Virus genome (UHGV): UHGV-0149901
Strand: one strand, 5' to 3'
Length of the DNA stretch: 64,000 bases
DNA from: a virus
Positions 9,411 to 61,376 of this stretch are shown here, in pieces. The notes under the pieces are model-generated. The model saw only the letters and a list, made by a program, of their open reading frames with translations. It ran no database searches and was not told the origin of the DNA. Each line of letters begins with the position of its first letter. Within the stretch, counting starts at the first letter, position 1. The position numbers were made by a program, and so were the translations under genes.

Positions 9411-9508
9411 GCTGAAAATGAGTTACTTTTACTCTTGATCCTATAAGAATCTATGCCTAATATACTGTTTACTTATACAGTGCATCGGCGTAACTCGGTG
9501 ATTGTCAT

Positions 9509-37536: not shown

Positions 37537-37641
37537 CATATGGTGGGGTGTATCCCCACCTTCTCTTTGATTTGTAAGCCTTGTTTAAACAAATAAGATA
37601 ACAACTTGTTTAAACACATCAAAAAGCAAAAGGAAAAACAC

Positions 37642-38784
37642 ATGTCATATTCAACGTTCCGTTTGGGTGCTAATGATGCAACCAAAGAGCCTATGTTCCT
37701 CGGACAATCTGTCAACGTGGCACGTTACGATCAGCAAAAATACCGTGATTTTGAAAAGTTGATTGAACGTCAATTGTCTTTCTTCTGGCGGCCGGAAGAA
37801 GTTGATATTTCGAGCGATCGTATCGACTTCAACACGAAGCTGCGGGACCACGAACGTCACATTTTTCTGAGCAATCTCCGTTATCAAACGTTACTCGATT
37901 CAGTTCAGGGACGTAGCCCAAATGCAACGCTGCTGCCGCTTATCTCTATTCCTGAACTGGAAACGTGGGTTGAAACATGGTCTTTCTCTGAGACTATCCA
38001 TAGCCGTAGCTACACCCACATTATTCGTGGCATGGTGGACGATCCGAGTATTGTTTTTGACGGTATTGTTACGGATGAAGAAATCATCAACCGAGCGATC
38101 AGTATCTCTGCTGAATATGACAGGCTTTATGGGATGACATGCGAGCGCCAGTCGTTAGGTGAGAAGGAGTTTGAACGTCTGTACGTAAATGAATATGGCT
38201 GGGAGCCATACCCTTTGCATCGTCAGCTTTTCCGCACGTTGGTGTCCATTAATGCGCTTGAGGCGATCCGTTTCTATGTAAGTTTTGCATGTACGTTTGC
38301 CTTTGGCGAACGGAAGTTGCTTGAGGGTAACACCAAAATTATGCGCTTTATTGCCCGTGATGAAGCTCTGCATTGCGAAGGAACTGAACGCATGATCCGC
38401 TTCATGCGTACCGGTCGCGAAGGTTTATTGTGGAAAGAGATTGCTGCTGATGAAGAAAACGTCATTTACGACACCATGAAATCAGTCGCCGAACAAGAAA
38501 TGAACTGGGCAGACTATCTCTTCAAAGACGGTTCGATGATTGGTTTAAACGCGGATATTCTGAAGACCTATGTAAAATACCGCACCAATCTGGCTATGAA
38601 TCGTCTTGGCCTGAAGGCTTTATTTCCAGAAGTTACCACAGATCCGCTGGTCTGGATGAACAAGTGGTTGTTAACCGACACACTGCAAATTGCACCACAA
38701 GAGGCAGAGCAAAGCACATATCTGGTAGGTCAGATCGATTCTACCGTGGATAAGGCTTCTCTAAGCCAGTTTGCAGACCTGTAA
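37642..38784 (+). CDS. nrdB: Ribonucleoside-diphosphate reductase beta subunit
   Basis: Start moved to MSYSTF after conserved AGGAAAAACACATG; di-iron/tyrosyl radical family blocks. Confidence 0.85.
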
Positions 38785-38861: not shown

Positions 38862-39731
38862 ATGAACTTTACCAAACTGACTGACCACCTGAAACTTGCC
38901 ACCGATCGTCTCATTGGATTTAAGCCAGAACCATATGAGTTGCATGAAGGTCATGGTGTAGCTACTGAAAGTATTTACAAGATGGTCGATCAGTTTCATG
39001 AACTCTTCCAGCATCCGAGACGCGTTATGCCGACACCAGAGCTGCTTCGTCTCCGTGCAAGCCTGATTCATGAAGAAGCTGTAGTGGAAGGTATTCCAGC
39101 CGCAATGAATGGGGATATTGAGCAACTGCTGGATGCAATGGCCGACTTTTTATACGTTGGTGTTGGTACGATGGTCGCCATCAAAGGTGGTATTTCTACC
39201 GGCATGACCTATTACACGCAGGAACAGAGCATTGATCGCTTTATGCAGACAATTTTTGTGCCCGGTAACACTGTTTTCGATGATATGGCAATGCCATTTC
39301 AGGAAGCTCGTGAGGCGTCATATATGCTCGAAGAGCTGGCAGATAAACTTGAGAACAAGACTGTTAAGGATTCTGAGCTGATTCAGGAACTGCGCCGTGT
39401 CATGAACAAAATCTATGTGGCGTGCATGATGACCTATCGACTGGCTGATTTCCTCGGTATCAATGTAGTCGAGCTGGTTGGCGAAATTCATCGGTCTAAC
39501 ATGACAAAATTATGGCCTGCTGATGTCGAGGAACGTCGCCAGGCTGTGGCCAACTGCAAATACGACTCTTCAGACCTGGGATTTCGCCATGCTGATGGTA
39601 CCGATAAGATGATCGGTTTTCGAATTTCCGATGGAAAGATTCTGAAGTCTCCAACCTATAGTGATGTCGATTTATCCTCCTTTGTTGAGCAAGCTAAAGC
39701 CTCAGCAATGTACGGAATGATCAAAAAATAA
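38862..39731 (+). CDS. Hypothetical protein with MazG/HisE-like N-terminal region (putative NTP pyrophosphohydrolase)
   Basis: Helical acidic pattern IHEEAVVE ... DIEQLLDAMADFLYV; 289 aa. Confidence 0.45.
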   Translation: MNFTKLTDHLKLATDRLIGFKPEPYELHEGHGVATESIYKMVDQFHELFQHPRRVMPTPELLRLRASLIHEEAVVEGIPAAMNGDIEQLLDAMADFLYVGVGTMVAIKGGISTGMTYYTQEQSIDRFMQTIFVPGNTVFDDMAMPFQEAREASYMLEELADKLENKTVKDSELIQELRRVMNKIYVACMMTYRLADFLGINVVELVGEIHRSNMTKLWPADVEERRQAVANCKYDSSDLGFRHADGTDKMIGFRISDGKILKSPTYSDVDLSSFVEQAKASAMYGMIKK

Positions 39732-39901
39732 TTGTAGGTAGTTATCTATCTATGTATATTGTGTTAGCGCGTTAAATTCCTGAAACAACTATTCGTTTTG
39801 GTGGCCTATGGCCACCATTTTTTTATCTATCTGGCCTTGTTCCCTCAATAAATGTAAACTCACGTAATGAATAAGTGATTACTTATCTTTGTGAGGTTTT
39901 T

Positions 39902-41005
39902 GTGTCACTCCTTTTGAATCGTGAGCATACGAACGGTCAGGTAACAAACGCATCGTATGCAAAAGTTATTGAGACGGTGCTTAAAAGCGGCGTGCAGGCT
40001 GATGATCGCACAGGCACTGGTACTTTAAGCACCTGCTACGTTCCCTCTTACTACATGCTTACTGGTGGGACTGTGCCGCTTATTTCTGGAAAGGCGGTAA
40101 ATCTTAAGCCACTGCTTGTCGAACTTGAGTGGTATCTGAAAGGCACGGGCAACATCCAATTTCTCAAGGATAACGGCGTTAAGATTTGGGATGCATGGGC
40201 CGATGAGAATGGCGATTTGGGGCCAGTTTACGGTAAGCAGTGGCGTCGATGGGAAGATACCCGCATCGTGAGCCATAGTGAATATCTGAGCAAGATCGCT
40301 ACTTTCCGTGAACGCGGGTACAAAGTCGAGGGATACCTAGGTATCAGTGAAGATCGCGTAGTGCTGTCCCGTGAAATCGATCAGCTACAGCGTATTGTCG
40401 ATACACTGCGCACGAACCCTACCGATCGTCGCATCATGCTTAACGCATGGAACGTAGGCGAGCTTGAGGATATGAAACTGCCACCTTGCCACTTTGTCTT
40501 CTCTTTGTGGAGTCGTGAGCTTGATTTTGAAACCCGTTTAACGATGGCAACTGACATTGGTCTTCAACACAGTCGCCTCGGTTACGAGTCTATCTACACC
40601 AAGATGCTATACGATCTGGAGATGGACGGCAGTGTTACTGAAGCTGAACTGGATGAACTTGGAATCCCCAAACGCATCCTCAACTCCTGCCTCGTACAGC
40701 GTAGCGTAGACACTTTTGTTGGTATGCCATTCAATATTGCTGGCTATGGCATTCTCACTCATTTTCTCGCGAAGATTACGGGTCACATGGCCGGTGCATT
40801 TGTGCATTTTGGCTTTGACGTGCATTTGTACAACAACCACATGGAAGGTGTGTGTGAGCTAATGAAACGACAGGCTCCAGAGCATTCAGATCCGGTCGTT
40901 ATTTTCCCTCATGAATGGTCAGAGTTGGATGATTTCAAATGGGACGAGGTTTTAATTCTTGGCTATGACCCTCTATCGTGGATCAAGGTTCCAGTGGCGG
41001 TGTGA
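39902..41005 (+). CDS. thyA: Thymidylate synthase (start uncertain, GTG chosen; extended form)
   Basis: DRTGTGT and catalytic LPPCH motifs; about 100 aa longer than E. coli ThyA. Confidence 0.8.
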   Translation: MSLLLNREHTNGQVTNASYAKVIETVLKSGVQADDRTGTGTLSTCYVPSYYMLTGGTVPLISGKAVNLKPLLVELEWYLKGTGNIQFLKDNGVKIWDAWADENGDLGPVYGKQWRRWEDTRIVSHSEYLSKIATFRERGYKVEGYLGISEDRVVLSREIDQLQRIVDTLRTNPTDRRIMLNAWNVGELEDMKLPPCHFVFSLWSRELDFETRLTMATDIGLQHSRLGYESIYTKMLYDLEMDGSVTEAELDELGIPKRILNSCLVQRSVDTFVGMPFNIAGYGILTHFLAKITGHMAGAFVHFGFDVHLYNNHMEGVCELMKRQAPEHSDPVVIFPHEWSELDDFKWDEVLILGYDPLSWIKVPVAV

Positions 41006-50112: not shown

Positions 50113-50215
50113 CAAATACCTTTATTTAAAGGATTGCCTGTTAATTTCTATTTAGCACCTTTTCATTTTTGAAATAATTGCACCATTAAACAAATCTTTT
50201 CTTAATGGTGCAATT

Positions 50216-51901
50216 ATGAATACAGCTCTTTCCATCATCGACGATGCCAACTCAAACACTGCTATCGATTATCGTCAGGAAATGAACGTCATCCACGAAA
50301 TTGTGGCCGAGTGCGAGAAGGAGATCGCCTTCATGTATCAGGTTCACGACTTCGTTTATGGAGACGAACGCCACAACATGATTAATCGCCTGCTGCAACT
50401 GAACCACCGACCAGATGAAGAACGCTCACGTTTGAATCGAGCTTGGCTGGATAAAGTCGATCTGGAATGGGTGAAACAGAATATTTGGGCCGAGTACTGG
50501 AGGAAGGTCACGGATATGACTAACGTTCTGCTGATCATGCCAGCTTCCCGTCGCGACGAGTGGCGTGAGCAGTTTATCGAGGGTAAGCAGGAAGTCATCA
50601 AAACTGACAGAACCGGCTATCAGATGAAGGTAAAAGAGTTCGTTGGTGTACCGGAGTTCAAAGCAGAAACGGTCATACCCACGATGCTTAATTTGCTGAA
50701 TGACAGGCACAAATATCTCTCTGAGCGCGTGTATGGCTTGTTTAAGGCGCTGAGTCCTGCGCACAAGACAAATAAGACAAACGGTTTCAGCGAACGTCTG
50801 ATAATCGCTGACTGCATTTCTGATTTCTGGCGGGACAGCGTTAGTGTGAACTATCGCAAAGAGGACTATATCGACGATCTGCGTGTCTTGCTTCATTTCT
50901 TCGCGCACAAAGAATTTATTACCATCAACCGCACTGCTGAGGTGCTATCAGCTGCGTATCGGGCAAACGACTGCCAGACCGGTGACTGGATGAACGTCGA
51001 TGGAAATCTGATGCGCGTGAAGATGTTCAAGAACGGCAACGTTCACTTTGAAATACATCCTGACGTGGCCTGGAAGTTGAATGAGGTGCTGGCTTACAGT
51101 ATGCCTGCTGCAATCCCCGCGCCATGTCGCACCGCGCCAAAAACACGGGCACCAAAGCAGTTCGGGTTAATCCAGAAGACGATCTCCGTGCCGGTTCGCA
51201 CTGCGCTTCGTGACGGGCGATTGAGCAAAGACAAAGGCGTATGGTACTTCTCTGATTCAGCTCTCCAGAAGTCGCAGGTGGAAGAGCTTGAGCGCACACT
51301 GAGCTTCATTGGCGGCGTGCAGGAGAAAAAGCACTGGCAGTTCCCGTATGACATCGTCCATACGCTAAATACGATTGTGGCTACCGGTTTAATACCGGAT
51401 ACAAAATCACACCAGTTCTACCCTACCCCACGCTTGATTGCTGAGTACGTTGCCAGAGCCACTGAATTGAAGCCTGGTGAGAAGCTGCTGGAGCCTCAAG
51501 CCGGACGTGGGGATCTTCTGGCCTATATTAACGCCGATCTGGAAGATGTTACCTGCATAGAAATCGCACCTCTCTTCGCTGATATCCTGCGTGGAAAAGG
51601 GTATACGAACACGATTTGCTGCGACTTCATAAAGTGGTCTGAGGACAACGTAGGTTATCAGTTCGACAAAATCGTTATGAACCCGCCGTATTCGCTTGGT
51701 CGTCATAGAGAGCACACGCTGGCTGCGCTGGGGCATCTGAAAGTCGGCGGGCGTCTTGTAGCAGTATTGCCGGGCACTGCGCCAATACTGGACTGGATGA
51801 CGATGGATAATTACGTTTATGCCAGAGGGAAGTCGTTTACCAACGAGTTTGAAGACACAGGGATCACAGTCAGCGTATACGTTTTCAAACGCGTTAAATG
51901 A
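50216..51901 (+). CDS. DNA N6-adenine methyltransferase with large N-terminal domain of unknown function
   Basis: C-terminal motif I LEPQAGRGDL and motif IV NPPY; about 380 aa uncharacterised N-terminus. Confidence 0.65.
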   Translation: MNTALSIIDDANSNTAIDYRQEMNVIHEIVAECEKEIAFMYQVHDFVYGDERHNMINRLLQLNHRPDEERSRLNRAWLDKVDLEWVKQNIWAEYWRKVTDMTNVLLIMPASRRDEWREQFIEGKQEVIKTDRTGYQMKVKEFVGVPEFKAETVIPTMLNLLNDRHKYLSERVYGLFKALSPAHKTNKTNGFSERLIIADCISDFWRDSVSVNYRKEDYIDDLRVLLHFFAHKEFITINRTAEVLSAAYRANDCQTGDWMNVDGNLMRVKMFKNGNVHFEIHPDVAWKLNEVLAYSMPAAIPAPCRTAPKTRAPKQFGLIQKTISVPVRTALRDGRLSKDKGVWYFSDSALQKSQVEELERTLSFIGGVQEKKHWQFPYDIVHTLNTIVATGLIPDTKSHQFYPTPRLIAEYVARATELKPGEKLLEPQAGRGDLLAYINADLEDVTCIEIAPLFADILRGKGYTNTICCDFIKWSEDNVGYQFDKIVMNPPYSLGRHREHTLAALGHLKVGGRLVAVLPGTAPILDWMTMDNYVYARGKSFTNEFEDTGITVSVYVFKRVK

Positions 51902-51962: not shown

Positions 51963-52667
51963 ATGAACAACCTCCAGTTAGAGCATTTTAACGTCACAGG
52001 CCATTCTGATTTTCCTTTCAAGTTTACATTGAAAGGTTATGCAGAGGATGCGGTAGGCCAGATCATTATTGATAAAGGCATCGTTAAGTTTGAGGGGGAT
52101 TTTGATGAATCCGCGAAAACATTCATAGACTTCGTTGCCAAACGTTGGAGCGAGCAATGGAAAAACCTGGAAAAGCGCGCCAATGAGTTTGATCGGTTCA
52201 TGGATGCAATGGATACAGCAAAAGAGGCTCTTGATGCCGGGACTCCGTTAGATCTGGAGTCACTTTTCAACGGCGAAGTGGCCTCTGCGATGTTTGCCAC
52301 CATGTTCGCGGGTGAGTTCGTCCGCAGCGGTGCCAAAAACTACCTTGAGCTGGATTACAACGTCCCTGCAATTGGCGATTTCGTCGTTACCATCCAACGC
52401 AAAGAAGGTAAGACGCCAGGTGAACGCGTCGCAGAGCTTGAGGCCGTTGTGGATCAGCGTAACGGAGAGTGTGACCGTTTGATCAACGAGCTTCATGCAC
52501 TTCGGGAAGAAAGAATATGCGCGGGTAGTAATACACGTAATGCAGCGGATATCTACTTCCAGTTAGTTGAGGAATGCCAGATTCCACCAGGTGGCTCTCT
52601 TGTCGATTACGTAAGACATTTAATGGCGGAAGTTAGCTCCAGCCATAAAGATGGTGAGGTGCGCTGA
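51963..52667 (+). CDS. Hypothetical protein
   Basis: 234 aa ORF. Confidence 0.5.
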   Translation: MNNLQLEHFNVTGHSDFPFKFTLKGYAEDAVGQIIIDKGIVKFEGDFDESAKTFIDFVAKRWSEQWKNLEKRANEFDRFMDAMDTAKEALDAGTPLDLESLFNGEVASAMFATMFAGEFVRSGAKNYLELDYNVPAIGDFVVTIQRKEGKTPGERVAELEAVVDQRNGECDRLINELHALREERICAGSNTRNAADIYFQLVEECQIPPGGSLVDYVRHLMAEVSSSHKDGEVR

Positions 52668-53047: not shown

Positions 53048-53166
53048 ACGCTACAAATCCTTCTGCGTGAATAAATAAAGGCCATAAGTTGTGGCCTTAA
53101 ATAAATTGTTTTCTGCCTTTTCTTATTTGTGAAAATAACCACAACTAGAAAACAACGGAGTTAAGA

Positions 53167-53808
53167 ATGTCTAGTATTTCCGAAGCACATATGTTCGCCG
53201 CTGGCGCTCATGGTGGCGTTGGTCAGAAAAGAAAATATACCGGCGAAAACTACATCAACCACCCGGTTGCTGTCCGAGAGATTGTTGCATTGCATGACGG
53301 AACCGTGGAGATGCAAATCGCGGCGCTTCTGCATGATGTGGTCGAAGACACCCATGTAACCATAGAGATGGTTCGTGATCACTTCGGTGAGCGCGTAGCT
53401 GAAATGGTTCAGGCTCTGACCAACATTGCAAGGCCAGAAGACGGCAATCGAATACAGCGTTTCATCATCAATGTCCGGGAGCTGGAGCAAAATCTCGACA
53501 TGCAGACGCGCATGATCAAGCTGGCTGACCTGCTCGACAATACCTCTTCTATCGTGAGTCGCGATCCTGAGTTTTCAGCTATCTACCTTGCAGAGAAAGA
53601 GCTGATGCTGGACGTACTTTTTAACGGGAAGGAGATTGGTGCCAACGCTGATGTTGTCGAGTACATGGAGAGGATAGGTATAGAACACCCGTTGTTATTA
53701 AGCGCAAAGGCGAAAGTCACTGAAGGTATTGCGCTTCTGAAACCGGTACACATCAAACGTTATGAAAAACACAAATCGCTGATCTGGAGCGCGTGGGAGG
53801 CTGCATGA
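53167..53808 (+). CDS. HD-domain small alarmone hydrolase (SpoT/RelA hydrolase-domain-like)
   Basis: HD signature HPVAV ... AALLHDVVEDT matching (p)ppGpp hydrolase domain; 213 aa, no synthetase domain. Confidence 0.7.
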   Translation: MSSISEAHMFAAGAHGGVGQKRKYTGENYINHPVAVREIVALHDGTVEMQIAALLHDVVEDTHVTIEMVRDHFGERVAEMVQALTNIARPEDGNRIQRFIINVRELEQNLDMQTRMIKLADLLDNTSSIVSRDPEFSAIYLAEKELMLDVLFNGKEIGANADVVEYMERIGIEHPLLLSAKAKVTEGIALLKPVHIKRYEKHKSLIWSAWEAA

Positions 53809-54347
53809 AGGTCGAAAAAATAGATGTTCTTTCCTTTGTGCTGACGGATCTGGAACGCCTCGATCCGGTTCGAGTGATGATTGAAAACTACGAACCTGGT
53901 AAGGGAAGAATCACCATCACCTGCTACGGAAAAGCGTGGACTGCGGCTTGGTTTGCTATGGGCGGTGATGATGTGCAGACGTTCATTAAGCGAGTTAGCA
54001 ACGATTATCTAATCGACAATTTCGACCCTCAACTGCTAAGCACGGTCGACGATGACAACGATGCAAATCTGCTTTTCGTAAAGTCAGAAATCATAAAGTT
54101 ACGAAGAGAGAGAGAAATAGACGCCGTACTGGCTCGCGAAATGTGGGACGAGGCGGAAAACGCCGATGACGTAAAAGAAAGCTGCTGTTGTTTCGGCGTC
54201 GGTAACAAACTGCTGAATCTCTTTGGTGATGATCCGTGGTATGCCGACTGGCCAACGGTACCAAACCCGAAATACCAGTATCTGGAACGCATTGTGAACG
54301 CGGTACGTGAAGGGCTGAAAGAGTTAGATAAGTTAGAGGCATCGTAA
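53805..54347 (+). CDS. Hypothetical protein
   Basis: Start set at MKVEKI after GGGAGG. Confidence 0.5.
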   Translation: MKVEKIDVLSFVLTDLERLDPVRVMIENYEPGKGRITITCYGKAWTAAWFAMGGDDVQTFIKRVSNDYLIDNFDPQLLSTVDDDNDANLLFVKSEIIKLRREREIDAVLAREMWDEAENADDVKESCCCFGVGNKLLNLFGDDPWYADWPTVPNPKYQYLERIVNAVREGLKELDKLEAS

Positions 54348-57325: not shown

Positions 57326-57621
57326 TAATGTCCGTTTTTAACCAAATGTACCCACAATACCGCAACATCAGTGTCTTGCGAATTAAGATAGGATTTATAG
57401 AGACTATGTGCAAGTGCATAACTTTGTGGATAACTCGTAAAGGAAAAAGTGGTTTCCGCGGACATTAGTTCAGACAAGGAGTCTGGGAAAGTCAATGGGA
57501 AGTAAAAATTTGTTAAAAATAACGTTTGTTGGAATTGTATATATTTATGCCTTTCAATAGTTAGCATCTTATTAACATCTTTTTTAAGAGATAGAGTTCA
57601 AAAATATATAGCTTCAACATA

Positions 57622-57641
57622 TACTGTATGCATATACAGTA
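57622..57641 (+). promoter_or_regulatory. LexA (SOS) box
   Basis: TACTGTATGCATATACAGTA, exact CTGT-N8-ACAG palindrome, 17 bp upstream of UmuD'-like start. Confidence 0.8.
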
Positions 57642-57657: not shown

Positions 57658-58047
57658 ATGGGCTTCCCTTCTCCTGCGGCGGATTATGCTGAGAGCCGTA
57701 TTTCTCTTGATCAGCAGATAATTAGACATCCTTCAGCGACCTACTTCATGAGGGCAGCTGATAGTCATCATCGTGAGGGAATATTACAGGGTGCATTGCT
57801 GGTGGTCGATTCCTCACTTACCCCGGTTGATGGTTCTCTGCTTGTATGCGCTCTGGATGGGGAATATCGCGTAAAAAGATACCGGAAGTATCCACGTCAG
57901 CATCTGGAGGATTTAAGAACCGGTAAGAAGGAAGCATTGCCAAAGGATGACGATGGATGCACGGGCAGCAATGCCGTGTTTGGTGTGATCACTCACATTA
58001 TCAACGACGCAAGAAGTGGCGAGTTTGATGATTGTCCCGTGATGTAG
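57658..58047 (+). CDS. UmuD'-like protein (naturally truncated UmuD homolog, as phage P1 HumD)
   Basis: Begins MGFPSPAADY at the position matching the UmuD self-cleavage site; S24 peptidase-like fold; no umuC follows. Confidence 0.75.
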   Translation: MGFPSPAADYAESRISLDQQIIRHPSATYFMRAADSHHREGILQGALLVVDSSLTPVDGSLLVCALDGEYRVKRYRKYPRQHLEDLRTGKKEALPKDDDGCTGSNAVFGVITHIINDARSGEFDDCPVM

Positions 58048-58084: not shown

Positions 58085-59185
58085 TCACACTGCGCGGAAT
58101 GCGATTTCGCCAGGTATTACTTCACCTTGCCAATACATTTGGGCAGCAACGCGATCTGCGAGGTCACGATAAATAGCCGTAAATTCGCTATCTGGACGAC
58201 TAATAACGGTTGGTGTTCCGTTATCCAGATCTTCACGAAGAGAGATATGAAGTGGCATTTGGCCTAACAACTGCGTGTTGTATTTCTCGGCCAGTTTCTG
58301 TGCGCCACCGGTGCCAAAAATTGGCTCGTGATGACCGCAGTTACTGCAAATATGCACACTCATGTTTTCAACGATACCCAGTACCGGCACTTCGACTTTT
58401 TCGAACATCACAATGCCTTTCTTCGCATCGATCAGCGCGATGTCTTGCGGCGTAGTTACCACAACCGCACCAGTTACAGGAATGTTCTGCGCCAGCGTCA
58501 ACTGAATATCACCAGTGCCCGGCGGCATATCGAGAACGAGATAGTCCAGATCAGGCCACAGTGTTTCCTGCAACATCTGCATCAGCGCCTTGCTGGCCAT
58601 CGGTCCACGCCACACCATTGCATTGTCGTCGGTGACCAGATAACCAATAGAGTTGGTTGCCAGGCCATGAGACATGATAGGTGCCATGTGAGTACCGTCA
58701 GGTGAGGTTGGACGTTGGTTTTCCGAGCCCAGCATGGTTGGAATTGATGGACCATAGATATCGGCATCCAAAATACCAACTTTCGCACCTTCAGCAGCCA
58801 ACGCCAGTGCCAGGTTTACCGCCGTGGAGGATTTACCCACGCCGCCCTTGCCTGAGCTGACGGCGATAATGTTCTTCACGCCATTAATGCCTGGTTGGTT
58901 TTTGACGCGCTTAAGCGTGGCAATGTTGTACGACAGCTTCCAGTCAATAGCCTTTGCGCCAGTGATACGGAGCAGATCACCACTACATTGCTCTTTCAGG
59001 TCTTCAAAAGGCTTATTCCACACGAAAGGCATGATTAGTTCGACATGCAGTGTGTCATCCATCAACGCAACATGGTGTAACGCTTTAAGCGTAGTCAGGT
59101 TGTGTTTCAGGGTTGGGTGCTGAAAATTAGCCAGCGTACCGGCTACCATTGCTCTCAGGGCATCCGGCGATTTGGACTCGCTCAT
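58085..59185 (-). CDS. apbC: Fe-S cluster carrier ATPase ApbC/Mrp
   Basis: 366 aa; ParA/MinD-type P-loop GKGGVGKS and CxxC (CSNCGH); strongly resembles enterobacterial Mrp; divergent from metG as in the chromosome. Confidence 0.9.
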   Translation of the reverse strand: MSESKSPDALRAMVAGTLANFQHPTLKHNLTTLKALHHVALMDDTLHVELIMPFVWNKPFEDLKEQCSGDLLRITGAKAIDWKLSYNIATLKRVKNQPGINGVKNIIAVSSGKGGVGKSSTAVNLALALAAEGAKVGILDADIYGPSIPTMLGSENQRPTSPDGTHMAPIMSHGLATNSIGYLVTDDNAMVWRGPMASKALMQMLQETLWPDLDYLVLDMPPGTGDIQLTLAQNIPVTGAVVVTTPQDIALIDAKKGIVMFEKVEVPVLGIVENMSVHICSNCGHHEPIFGTGGAQKLAEKYNTQLLGQMPLHISLREDLDNGTPTVISRPDSEFTAIYRDLADRVAAQMYWQGEVIPGEIAFRAV

Positions 59186-59342
59186 CCCGTCTCCTTTATT
59201 TTAATTTGCGCAATTGTCGCCTTGTAGTGTACTCCAGCTACGACATTTAATCATTTATGAGAAATGCTGTTATCACATGGCAGACATAAGGCCATTTTGT
59301 TACTATCAAGCCCCTTTTCACTACAAAGAAGTAATGCCTACT

Positions 59343-61376
59343 ATGACCCAAGTCGCGAAGAAAATTCTGGTGACGTGCGCGCTGCCGTACGCTAACGGCT
59401 CAATCCACCTCGGCCATATGCTGGAGCACATCCAGGCTGATGTCTGGGTTCGTTACCAGCGAATGCGCGGCCACGAGGTTAATTTCATCTGTGCCGACGA
59501 TGCCCACGGTACGCCGATCATGCTGAAAGCACAGCAGCTTGGTATCACACCGGAACAGATGATTGGCGAAATGAGTCAGGAACACCAGACTGATTTTGCA
59601 GGCTTTAACATCAGCTATGACAACTATCACTCGACGCACAGCGAAGAGAACCGTCAGTTGTCCGAGCTTATCTATACTCGCCTGAAAGAGAACGGTTTTA
59701 TTAAAAACCGCACCATCTCTCAGCTGTACGATCCGGAAAAAGGCATGTTCCTGCCGGACCGTTTTGTGAAAGGCACCTGCCCGAAATGTAAAGCACCGGA
59801 TCAATACGGCGATAACTGTGAAGTCTGCGGCGCTACTTACAGCCCGACTGAACTGATCGAGCCGAAATCGGTAGTTTCTGGTGCTACGCCGGTAATGCGT
59901 GATTCCGAACACTTCTTCTTTGATCTGCCTTCTTTCAGCGAAATGTTGCAGGCATGGACCCGCAGCGGTGCGTTGCAGGAGCAGGTGGCAAACAAAATGC
60001 AGGAGTGGTTTGAATCTGGCCTGCAACAGTGGGATATCTCCCGCGATGCGCCGTACTTCGGTTTTGAAATTCCGAACGCACCGGGCAAATATTTCTACGT
60101 CTGGCTGGACGCGCCGATTGGCTACATGGGTTCCTTCAAGAATCTGTGCGACAAACGCGGCGACACTACCAGCTTCGACGAATACTGGAAGAAAGACTCC
60201 ACCGCCGAGCTGTACCACTTCATCGGTAAAGATATTGTTTACTTCCACAGCCTGTTCTGGCCTGCCATGCTGGAAGGCAGCAACTTCCGCAAGCCGACCA
60301 ACCTGTTTGTTCATGGCTATGTGACGGTGAACGGCGCAAAGATGTCCAAGTCTCGCGGCACCTTTATTAAAGCCAGCACCTGGCTGAATCATTTTGACGC
60401 TGACAGCCTGCGTTACTACTACACTGCGAAACTCTCTTCGCGCATTGATGATATCGATCTCAACCTGGAGGATTTCGTTCAGCGCGTGAATGCCGATATC
60501 GTGAACAAAGTGGTTAACCTGGCCTCCCGTAATGCAGGCTTTATCAACAAGCGTTTTGACGGCGTGCTGGCAAGCGAACTGGCTGACCCGCAACTGTACA
60601 AAACCTTTACTGATGCTGCTGAAGTGATTGGTGAAGCATGGGAAAGCCGCGAATTTGGTAAAGCGATTCGTGAAATCATGGCGCTGGCTGATCTGGCTAA
60701 CCGCTATGTCGATGAACAGGCTCCGTGGGTGGTGGCGAAGCAGGAAGGGCGCGATGCCGATCTGCAGGCGATTTGCTCTATGGGCATTAACCTGTTCCGC
60801 GTGCTGATGACGTACCTGAAACCGGTACTGCCGAAACTGACTGAACGTGCAGAAGCATTCCTGAATACAGAACTGACCTGGGATGGTATCCAGCAACCGC
60901 TGCTGGGCCATAAAGTGAATCCGTTCAAGGCACTGTATAACCGCATCGACATGAAGCAGGTTGAAGCACTGGTGGAAGCATCCAAAGAGGAAGTAAAAGC
61001 CGCTGCCGCGCCAGTAACTGGCCCACTGGCAGATGATCCGATTCAGGAAACCATCACCTTTGACGACTTCGCCAAAGTTGACCTGCGCGTGGCTCTGATT
61101 GAAAACGCGGAGTTTGTCGAAGGTTCTGACAAACTGCTTCGCCTGACGCTGGATCTCGGTGGCGAAAAACGTAATGTCTTCTCCGGCATTCGTTCCGCTT
61201 ATCCAGATCCACAGGCACTGATTGGTCGTCACACCATTATGGTGGCCAACCTGGCTCCGCGTAAAATGCGCTTCGGTATCTCCGAAGGCATGGTGATGGC
61301 TGCTGGCCCCGGCGGGAAAGATATCTTCCTGTTAAGCCCGGATGCTGGTGCTAAACCAGGCCACCAGGTTAAGTAA
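59343..61376 (+). CDS. metG: Methionyl-tRNA synthetase
   Basis: 677 aa from [28 protein letters not shown] (HIGH motif), KMSKS motif, zinc knuckles; track ORF start 59214 is an upstream in-frame extension. Confidence 0.95.

Follow-up and report, generated by a model that had tools for sequence, protein, structure and literature searches.

The open reading frame at 53167–53808 very probably encodes an intact small alarmone hydrolase (SAH) of the PaSpo type. It lies in the window, that is, the whole 64,000-nucleotide stretch of DNA analysed here (UHGV virus genome UHGV-0149901). The fuller reading, in which an intact PaSpo-type SAH is combined with toxSAS-neutralising chemistry and a role in counter-defence, is one that we regard as reasonably probable. 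Since identical copies are public in E. coli plasmid records and an 87%-identical ortholog has been tested, the gene is real but already known; the public alleles are labelled only 'HD domain-containing protein'. The initial annotation had missed that a member of this protein family was already tested experimentally, and its interpretation as a whole is partly supported by the analysis. The gene and its parts are as follows.

53167..53808, plus strand: SAH coding sequence of 213 aa, probable PaSpo type, ortholog of SSU5_099 (ORF, HD_4, PHROG 990, AlphaFold2 model)
53230..53238, plus strand: R22-K23-Y24, putatively phosphate-binding (R22 and Y24 invariant, K23 at least 90% conserved)
53260..53262, plus strand: H32 of the INHP motif, predicted Mn2+ ligand (invariant; aligned with SpoT and MESH1)
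53332..53349, plus strand: H56-D57, predicted Mn2+ ligands, to E60-D61, the predicted catalytic ED pair, in LLHDVVED (alignment)
53518..53541, plus strand: K118-L-A-D121-L-L-D-N125 (KLADxxxN), with D121 as the fourth predicted Mn2+ ligand (K118, D121 and N125 invariant)
53623..53805, plus strand: residues 153–213, insertion plus C-terminal helices, confined to the clade of SSU5-like phage-plasmids (alignment, AlphaFold2 model)

The plus-strand frame opens with the ATG at 53167, preceded at about 8 nt by a GGAG Shine-Dalgarno sequence, and closes with the stop codon at 53806–53808, giving 213 aa. The stretch AALLHDVVEDT, from which a RelA/SpoT hydrolase-type HD domain had originally been called, occupies residues 52–62, and the profile and structure-database searches bear this assignment out. 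The Pfam model HD_4 (PF13328) matched residues 8–135 with E=1.2e-18 and 67.8 bits (curated cut-off 27.2). NCBIfam TIGR00691 spoT_relA matched with E=1.2e-24 and 86.6 bits (cut-off 499) over model positions 1–123 of 687, which are its hydrolase part alone, and PHROG 990, 'metal-dependent phosphohydrolase', matched with E=1.4e-54. Each of the 22 PDB sequences matched carries an annotation as a member of the RelA/SpoT family, a small alarmone hydrolase or a close homolog; among them are SpoT, Rel, MESH1, the P. aeruginosa SAH and the B. caccae (p)ppApp hydrolase. At the level of sequence, the domain match is confirmed to lie far beyond chance. The description of the protein as stand-alone also stands: no synthetase domain was detected in the 213 aa, a length too short for one. 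It was placed in the single-domain class because of this length, because HD_4 and HD are the sole Pfam models above their cut-offs, and because residues 136–213 are modelled as helices packed on the same domain.

In RSH hydrolases such as Rel_Seq and MESH1, Mn2+ is bound by a His, an HD pair and an Asp, and catalysis depends on the ED pair. The corresponding motifs were placed by pairwise alignments with A. baumannii SpoT, M. tuberculosis Rel and human MESH1. The region around R22-K23-Y24 aligned with the 'RK' stretch of SpoT, Rel and MESH1 that precedes GEPYIxHP/TPYINHP, and H32 aligned with the His of ILHP/INHP in SpoT and MESH1. The LLHDVVED stretch equals LLHDV(I/V)EDT of A. baumannii SpoT and is comparable with LLHDTVEDT in M. 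tuberculosis Rel and MESH1, and KLADxxxN aligned with KLADRYHN of SpoT and KLADKLYN of MESH1. In an alignment of 38 homologs of 43% to 88% identity, R22, Y24, T25, Y29, H32, P33, H56, E60, D61, T62, G93, R98, K118, D121, N125 and E143 were invariant, and D57 and K23 were conserved in at least 90%. The Mn2+-binding tetrad H...HD...D is complete (H32, H56, D57 and D121), so that the loss of metal-binding His or Asp residues, named earlier as a check on the assignment, did not occur; E60-D61 and N125, the Asn of KLADxxxN, are present as well. Because these residues are intact and the SSU5 ortholog neutralises toxSAS in vivo, the protein is predicted to be a Mn2+-dependent 3'-pyrophosphohydrolase.

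The AlphaFold2 model, built from the homolog alignment without the SSU5 row, is all-helical, with a mean pLDDT of 96.6 and a pTM of 0.92, and the predicted fold is that of an RSH hydrolase. The 50 matches listed by Foldseek against the PDB are all RSH hydrolases, SAHs or close homologs, and nothing else than RSH hydrolases and SAHs appears down to E ~9e-3; the best structural match is human MESH1 (3nr1), with a target-normalised TM of 0.82 and an rmsd of 2.4 A. Beyond the core, three confidently modelled C-terminal helices (161–170, 175–189 and 193–212) fall within residues ~153–213, a portion that is missing in the relatives of 165–180 aa in the homolog alignment.

The window belongs to an SSU5-like phage-plasmid of E. 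coli. The 4 kb around the SAH gene are 99.3% identical to the E. coli plasmid pG749_2, a non-mobilizable plasmid of 109.9 kb, and are in part 86–94% identical to Salmonella phage SSU5 and SSU5-like coliphages. The element was recognised as an SSU5-type phage-plasmid because pG749_2 joins virion genes (capsid, portal, terminase and tail) with RepB, ParB, dnaE, nrdAB, thyA and DHFR. SSU5-like phage-plasmids also carry tRNA genes of their own (Asn, Tyr, Thr, Ser) and a second, diverged copy of metG. The SAH gene sits in a run of small plus-strand genes that extends from a DUF4942-type methyltransferase gene to an S24 peptidase gene.

50216–51901: DUF4942-type DNA methyltransferase gene, flanking the small-gene run
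53078..53098, no strand assigned (minus-strand match): small GC-rich hairpin, weak and terminator-like, in the 119-nt spacer 5' of the SAH gene
53805..54347, plus strand: downstream gene of 180 aa, PHROG 3451, whose ATG overlaps the SAH stop by 4 nt (ATGA)
57658–58047: S24 peptidase gene with a LexA box at its promoter, flanking the small-gene run

The SAH protein and the product of the SSU5 gene SSU5_099 are 87% identical over 213/213 aa without gaps, and 18 of the 27 substitutions fall in residues 136–213. SSU5_099 is annotated as 'putative guanosine polyphosphate pyrophosphohydrolase/synthetase' and is the single locus in phage SSU5 that is similar to the SAH. SSU5 and pG749_2 have a common gene order, running from the DUF4942 methylase to the SAH gene and then to an overlapping downstream gene; the ATGA overlap between the SAH stop and the next ATG is present both in the window and in SSU5, where SSU5_100 is the likewise arranged counterpart of the downstream gene. 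By sequence and gene order, the window gene is evidently the syntenic ortholog of SSU5_099. The PaSpo subfamily of SAHs reportedly has its source in Atkinson 2011, together with Jimmy 2020. The SSU5 SAH was assigned to PaSpo by Jimmy et al. (PMC7229694), and SSU5_099 can be equated with the PaSpo of Jimmy et al. 2020 because it is the sole RSH-hydrolase locus in SSU5. Given the 87% full-length identity and the synteny with the SSU5 protein, we infer that the window protein is a member of the PaSpo subfamily as well.

This placement connects the gene with experiments. The SSU5 SAH, a stand-alone and phage-encoded protein according to Jimmy et al. (PMC7229694), neutralised all five toxSAS against which it was expressed in E. 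coli, namely CapRel, PhRel2, FaRel2, PhRel and FaRel (Jimmy et al. 2020, PMC7229694). [quoted passage not shown] 2021), and FaRel is a toxSAS that produces (pp)pApp. PaSpo has since become a routine tool that detoxifies FaRel2, PhRel2 and CapRel^SJ46 during overexpression, for which leaky expression is enough. In vitro, the SAHs MESH1 and ATfaRel restored the aminoacylation of tRNA pyrophosphorylated by FaRel2 (Kurata et al. 2021), and no published in-vitro substrate assay of PaSpo was found in the literature searched. The proposal in the initial annotation that the gene counters defences is therefore broadly upheld by the neutralisation of five out of five toxSAS; its wording of 'nucleotide-signal-based' defences fits only in part, because four of the five toxins modify tRNA CCA.

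On this basis, a PaSpo-type SAH would carry out the Mn2+-dependent hydrolysis of a 3'-pyrophosphate ester on ribose. [quoted passage not shown] The enzyme would then serve as a broad counter-defence, with which the phage-plasmid may establish itself or replicate in Enterobacteriaceae that carry toxSAS-based abortive infection, for example CapRel. Phage-defending CapRel systems are known from a Salmonella temperate phage, from E. coli prophages, and from Enterobacter and Klebsiella. It weighs against this role that the toxSAS in the neutralisation tests were overexpressed and came mostly from unrelated bacteria, and the literature searched held no report of an infection, lysogeny or deletion phenotype for the SAH gene of SSU5 or SSU5-like elements.

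The distribution and the evolution of the gene bear on the same question. At megablast sensitivity, the SAH gene was found in 143 records of the plasmid database, 48 of them from Escherichia, and in 41 of 5,426 complete E. coli genomes, whereas the element core gene nrdA was found in 556 plasmid records (164 Escherichia) and the element's metG copy at ~219 plasmid places in complete E. coli genomes. In the 41 E. coli genomes, the SAH gene always lies on plasmids of ~107–115 kb and never on the chromosome. Close DNA copies occur on plasmids of Escherichia, Enterobacter, Salmonella and Citrobacter, and Klebsiella elements have protein-level homologs of ~50–79% identity. Among phages in general, SAHs are widespread, with matches in 247 phage records, many of them of jumbo phages. 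The SAH stretch varies among SSU5-like elements; eae/ea22/eaA-like genes take its position in phage PhiR41_1, from which the SAH is absent, and only the first 39 nt of the gene are left in plasmid pF404-2. Decayed alleles include a truncation at residue 139, fusions in which the N-terminal part is replaced, with the loss of H32 and of the HD motif, and a variant that carries D57G/H15Y. Because most E. coli SSU5-like plasmids are without the gene, and because truncated, fused and D57G alleles are common, any benefit of the SAH is probably conditional. Full-length alleles are nevertheless under purifying selection, the dN/dS against SSU5 (Nei-Gojobori) being 0.18 overall, 0.115 for residues 1–135 and 0.24 for residues 136–213; the latter part thus evolves faster than the core, yet remains constrained. 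The patchy presence, the decayed alleles and the purifying selection together mark it as a functional but dispensable accessory gene. Such an accessory, dispensable but functional profile is typical of counter-defence genes.

The immediate neighbourhood offers no dedicated partner for the SAH. The downstream PHROG 3451 gene is probably co-translated with it, but a lambdoid phage of 40 kb, in which nothing matched the SAH portion, carries this gene at 96.8% identity. The product of the downstream gene gave no match in Pfam or PADLOC. No sigma-70-like promoter was called on the plus strand within the 119 nt that precede the SAH gene. LexA boxes occur in the window only at 9465 and at 57624, the latter at the S24-peptidase promoter, and none lies upstream of the SAH gene; a repeat search over the window gave no convincing shared operator. 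Two other candidates were set aside: the sequences upstream of the methylase gene (50196–50216) and of the SAH gene (53117–53137) resemble each other over 21 nt, but at only 81% and probably by chance, and a CRP-like half-palindrome seen by eye at ~53128–53143 has the start codon too near for a standard CRP promoter.

Several other roles were weighed against broad counter-defence. A narrower one, which we hold to be possible though tentative, is that the SAH is chiefly a tRNA 3'-end repair enzyme that would form, together with the element's tRNA genes and second metG, a toolkit for protecting translation. The clade-specific C-terminal helices (~153–213) might adapt the enzyme to a tRNA substrate. 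If this is true, the SAH would act as a natural counter-defence, broad in spectrum, against abortive infection of the CapRel/FaRel2 type in Enterobacteriaceae; no demonstration of such tRNA repair during infection was found in the literature searched.

It is rather unlikely, in our estimate, that the enzyme acts in nature mainly on host (p)ppGpp and serves to suppress the stringent response, the leading idea of the initial annotation, keeping ppGpp low so that translation and nucleotide synthesis keep feeding replication. The nearest relatives in sequence and structure, SpoT, Rel and MESH1, are true (p)ppGpp hydrolases, and the element carries nrdAB, thyA and DHFR, genes that raise the nucleotide supply. 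In addition, ppGpp is a plausible phage target: according to a 2026 preprint, phage infection is restricted by the stringent response, which a phage portal protein counters by inhibiting the synthetase activity of RelA/SpoT. However, toxSAS neutralisation is the only experimental phenotype recorded (PMC7229694), no ppGpp hydrolysis or measurement of ppGpp levels with PaSpo was found in the literature searched, and the constant removal of ppGpp would probably be costly to a lysogen. Since the chemistry is identical, suppression of the stringent response would be compatible with the counter-defence reading.

Host-protective lysogenic conversion is less likely still, and we consider it improbable. 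Here, the SAH expressed in the plasmid state would degrade (p)ppApp delivered by the Tas1-type secreted effectors of competitors. Hydrolases dedicated to (p)ppApp have the SAH fold, 7smg of B. caccae and the SAH of P. aeruginosa (6yvc/6z3n) being among the matches. FaRel, one of the toxins that the SSU5 ortholog neutralises, produces (pp)pApp (PMC7229694), and the element, which is kept as a plasmid, carries the gene in an accessory region that varies.

Also among the less likely rivals, and very improbable, is a metabolic role in which the SAH would remove a 3'-phosphate from a substrate other than an alarmone, for example NADPH or PAPS, in the manner of MESH1. MESH1 has NADPH phosphatase activity. 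The top structural matches do include MESH1 with NADPH (5vxa) and with PAPS (9chy), but the identity between the SAH and MESH1 is only ~26–28%, nothing in the gene context points to redox or sulfur metabolism, and toxSAS neutralisation is explained without a metabolic phosphatase role.

Weakest of all, and largely refuted, is the barely credible reading of the SAH as the antitoxin of a toxSAS module of the element's own, like ATfaRel/FaRel: SAHs do act as antitoxins in some toxSAS modules (PMC7229694) and the 4-nt overlap with the downstream gene is a layout typical of TA pairs, but the SAH and its flanking proteins gave no Pfam synthetase domain and no PADLOC match, a Pfam scan found RelA_SpoT domains in 0 of 30 window ORFs, the annotation of pG749_2 contains no toxSAS or synthetase gene, the overlapping downstream gene is present in a lambdoid phage without the SAH, and the SSU5 protein was called stand-alone by Jimmy et al. 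(PMC7229694), so that the reading was rejected for want of an adjacent synthetase gene by Pfam, PADLOC and the pG749_2 annotation.

A second ORF of the window had been suggested to act in the same direction as the SAH.

38862–39731: MazG-like ORF (PF01503, E=7.2e-9, residues 42–106; PHROG 671)

The MazG/PRA-PH domain match was recovered, and PHROG 671, 'nucleotide pyrophosphohydrolase', matched with E=1e-47. The ORF is directly flanked by nrdB and thyA; nrdA lies upstream and DHFR downstream. Its nearest solved relative is the MazG-like NTP pyrophosphohydrolase DR2231, by a weak match (E=1.4e-3). DR2231 prefers dUTP. The cyanophage MazG, the only phage MazG tested, did not hydrolyse magic-spot nucleotides (PMC6850273). 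Because of the nrdA-nrdB-MazG-thyA-DHFR context, the DR2231 match and the cyanophage result, a role in dNTP metabolism is favoured, and the ORF more likely conditions the dNTP pool, for example by supplying dUMP for ThyA, than turns over alarmones. The idea of a second alarmone hydrolase was accordingly dropped on gene context and the published cyanophage data (PMC6850273).

Returning to broad counter-defence as the preferred reading, phage SAHs are candidate broad-spectrum counter-defences against toxSAS-based abortive infection and may also modulate the stringent response of the host. The copy in the window adds no new principle, its SSU5 ortholog being already a laboratory tool against toxSAS.

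Among the systems known, PaSpo^SSU5 (SSU5_099, AFL47026.1) is the one to be compared most directly: the length of 213 aa, the catalytic residues, the clade-specific C-terminal helices, the genomic slot with its overlapping downstream gene and the element family are all shared, and the differences lie in the 27 substitutions and in the host, Salmonella for SSU5 and E. coli for the window allele. The hydrolase domains of long RSH enzymes (SpoT 7qpr/7qps; Rel 5xnx, 1vj7 and 6s2t) are the best PDB sequence matches (E ~1e-13 to 1e-10), with LLHDV(I/V)EDT and KLADxxxN motifs nearly identical to those of the SAH, whereas the SAH is without their synthetase, TGS and ACT domains. MESH1 of human and Drosophila (3nr1, 3nqw, 5vxa) is likewise an RSH hydrolase of a single domain and shares the Mn2+ site and the ED pair, and it neutralises FaRel2 and de-pyrophosphorylates tRNA, as the window SAH would be expected to do; by contrast, it is eukaryotic, has 179 aa and is without the insertion and C-terminal helices of residues ~153–213. 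ATfaRel and the SAH of PVP-SE1 are bacterial or phage SAHs that neutralise all tested toxSAS (PMC7229694). They differ from the window SAH in that the toxin gene lies adjacent to ATfaRel, whereas the window SAH is stand-alone, and in that the PVP-SE1 protein belongs to the PbcSpo subfamily (PMC7229694).

Some small alarmone hydrolase (SAH) alleles of other SSU5-like elements, represented by the homologs P0009, P0010, P0011 and P0012, are decayed or rearranged. P0011, found on 139 contigs, ends at residue 139 by truncation, and P0009 carries the substitutions D57G and H15Y together with a longer tail. In P0010, the N-terminus of a P-loop ATPase is fused at residue ~60, and because of this fusion the allele lacks H32 and the HD motif, which supply predicted Mn2+ ligands of SAH. 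In P0012, the N-terminal 66 aa are swapped for sequence resembling the N-terminal part of the 234-aa protein encoded upstream of SAH, one of two neighbours with related profile matches:

51963-52667, + strand: 234-aa protein upstream of SAH; PHROG 3451, profile positions 13-101
53805-54347, + strand: 180-aa protein downstream of SAH; PHROG 3451, profile positions 101-282

The match of both neighbours to different parts of one profile suggests that mosaic Ea22-like modules have been shuffled around SAH.

The initial annotation had proposed that a MazG-like ORF might act in the same direction as SAH. This ORF lies among genes of nucleotide metabolism:

37606-38784: nrdB, on one side of the MazG-like ORF
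38862-39731, + strand: MazG/PRA-PH-like ORF (289 aa), flanked by nrdB and thyA
39875-41005, + strand: thyA, thymidylate synthase homolog with a Pfam match

Matches to PDB structures of DR2231, a MazG-like NTP pyrophosphohydrolase, cover residues 51-104 and 185-217 of the ORF, and its MazG core seems to be split by an insertion of ~80 aa. The product is probably not an alarmone hydrolase but a pyrophosphatase for dNTPs (dUTP or dCTP) that supplies thymidylate synthesis. The thymidylate synthase homolog is itself long (376 aa), and its Pfam match falls in two separate stretches, a split implying that it holds a sizeable insertion that canonical ThyA lacks. It may be a plain dTMP synthase or a variant of the hydroxymethylase type.

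Two further genes are preceded by candidate control sites:

50174-50217: near-perfect inverted repeat of 21 nt (90% complementary, 2-nt spacer)
50216-51901, + strand: protein of 561 aa, DUF4942 domain at the N-terminus, methyltransferase region at the C-terminus
57597-57639, + strand: perfect LexA box CTGTATGCATATACAG and an overlapping promoter-like site, TTCAAA-17-TATACT
57658-58047: S24 peptidase (UmuD-like) gene

The C-terminal region of the DUF4942 protein matches the PADLOC 'mad2' (mads_2) and Type II MTase models, and the protein is probably an orphan DNA methylase of the anti-restriction type. The inverted repeat stops right at its start codon (50216) and may act as an operator or form a hairpin that controls translation. 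The LexA box and promoter-like site lie directly upstream of the S24 peptidase gene, which is probably SOS-regulated; a second perfect match to the LexA box occurs in the window at 9465-9480.

The element also carries the following genes:

64-1317, - strand: protein of 416 aa that contains seven Sel1 repeats (E=5e-56), unusual as phage-plasmid cargo
6148-6705, + strand: four clustered tRNA genes, Asn(GTT), Tyr(GTA), Thr(TGT) and Ser(TGA)
58085-61376: the element's own ApbC (apbC, - strand) and methionyl-tRNA ligase (metG, + strand) genes

The element metG shares just ~94-95% DNA identity with chromosomal E. coli metG and was found at ~219 plasmid places in a search of 5,426 complete E. coli genomes, which together indicate that it is a diverged second copy, stably maintained. 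As for the tRNA genes, the toxSAS toxin FaRel2 reportedly targets tRNA-Gly and tRNA-Thr, and phage tRNAs have been reported to bypass tRNA-targeting defences; the cluster might therefore represent counter-defence cargo.
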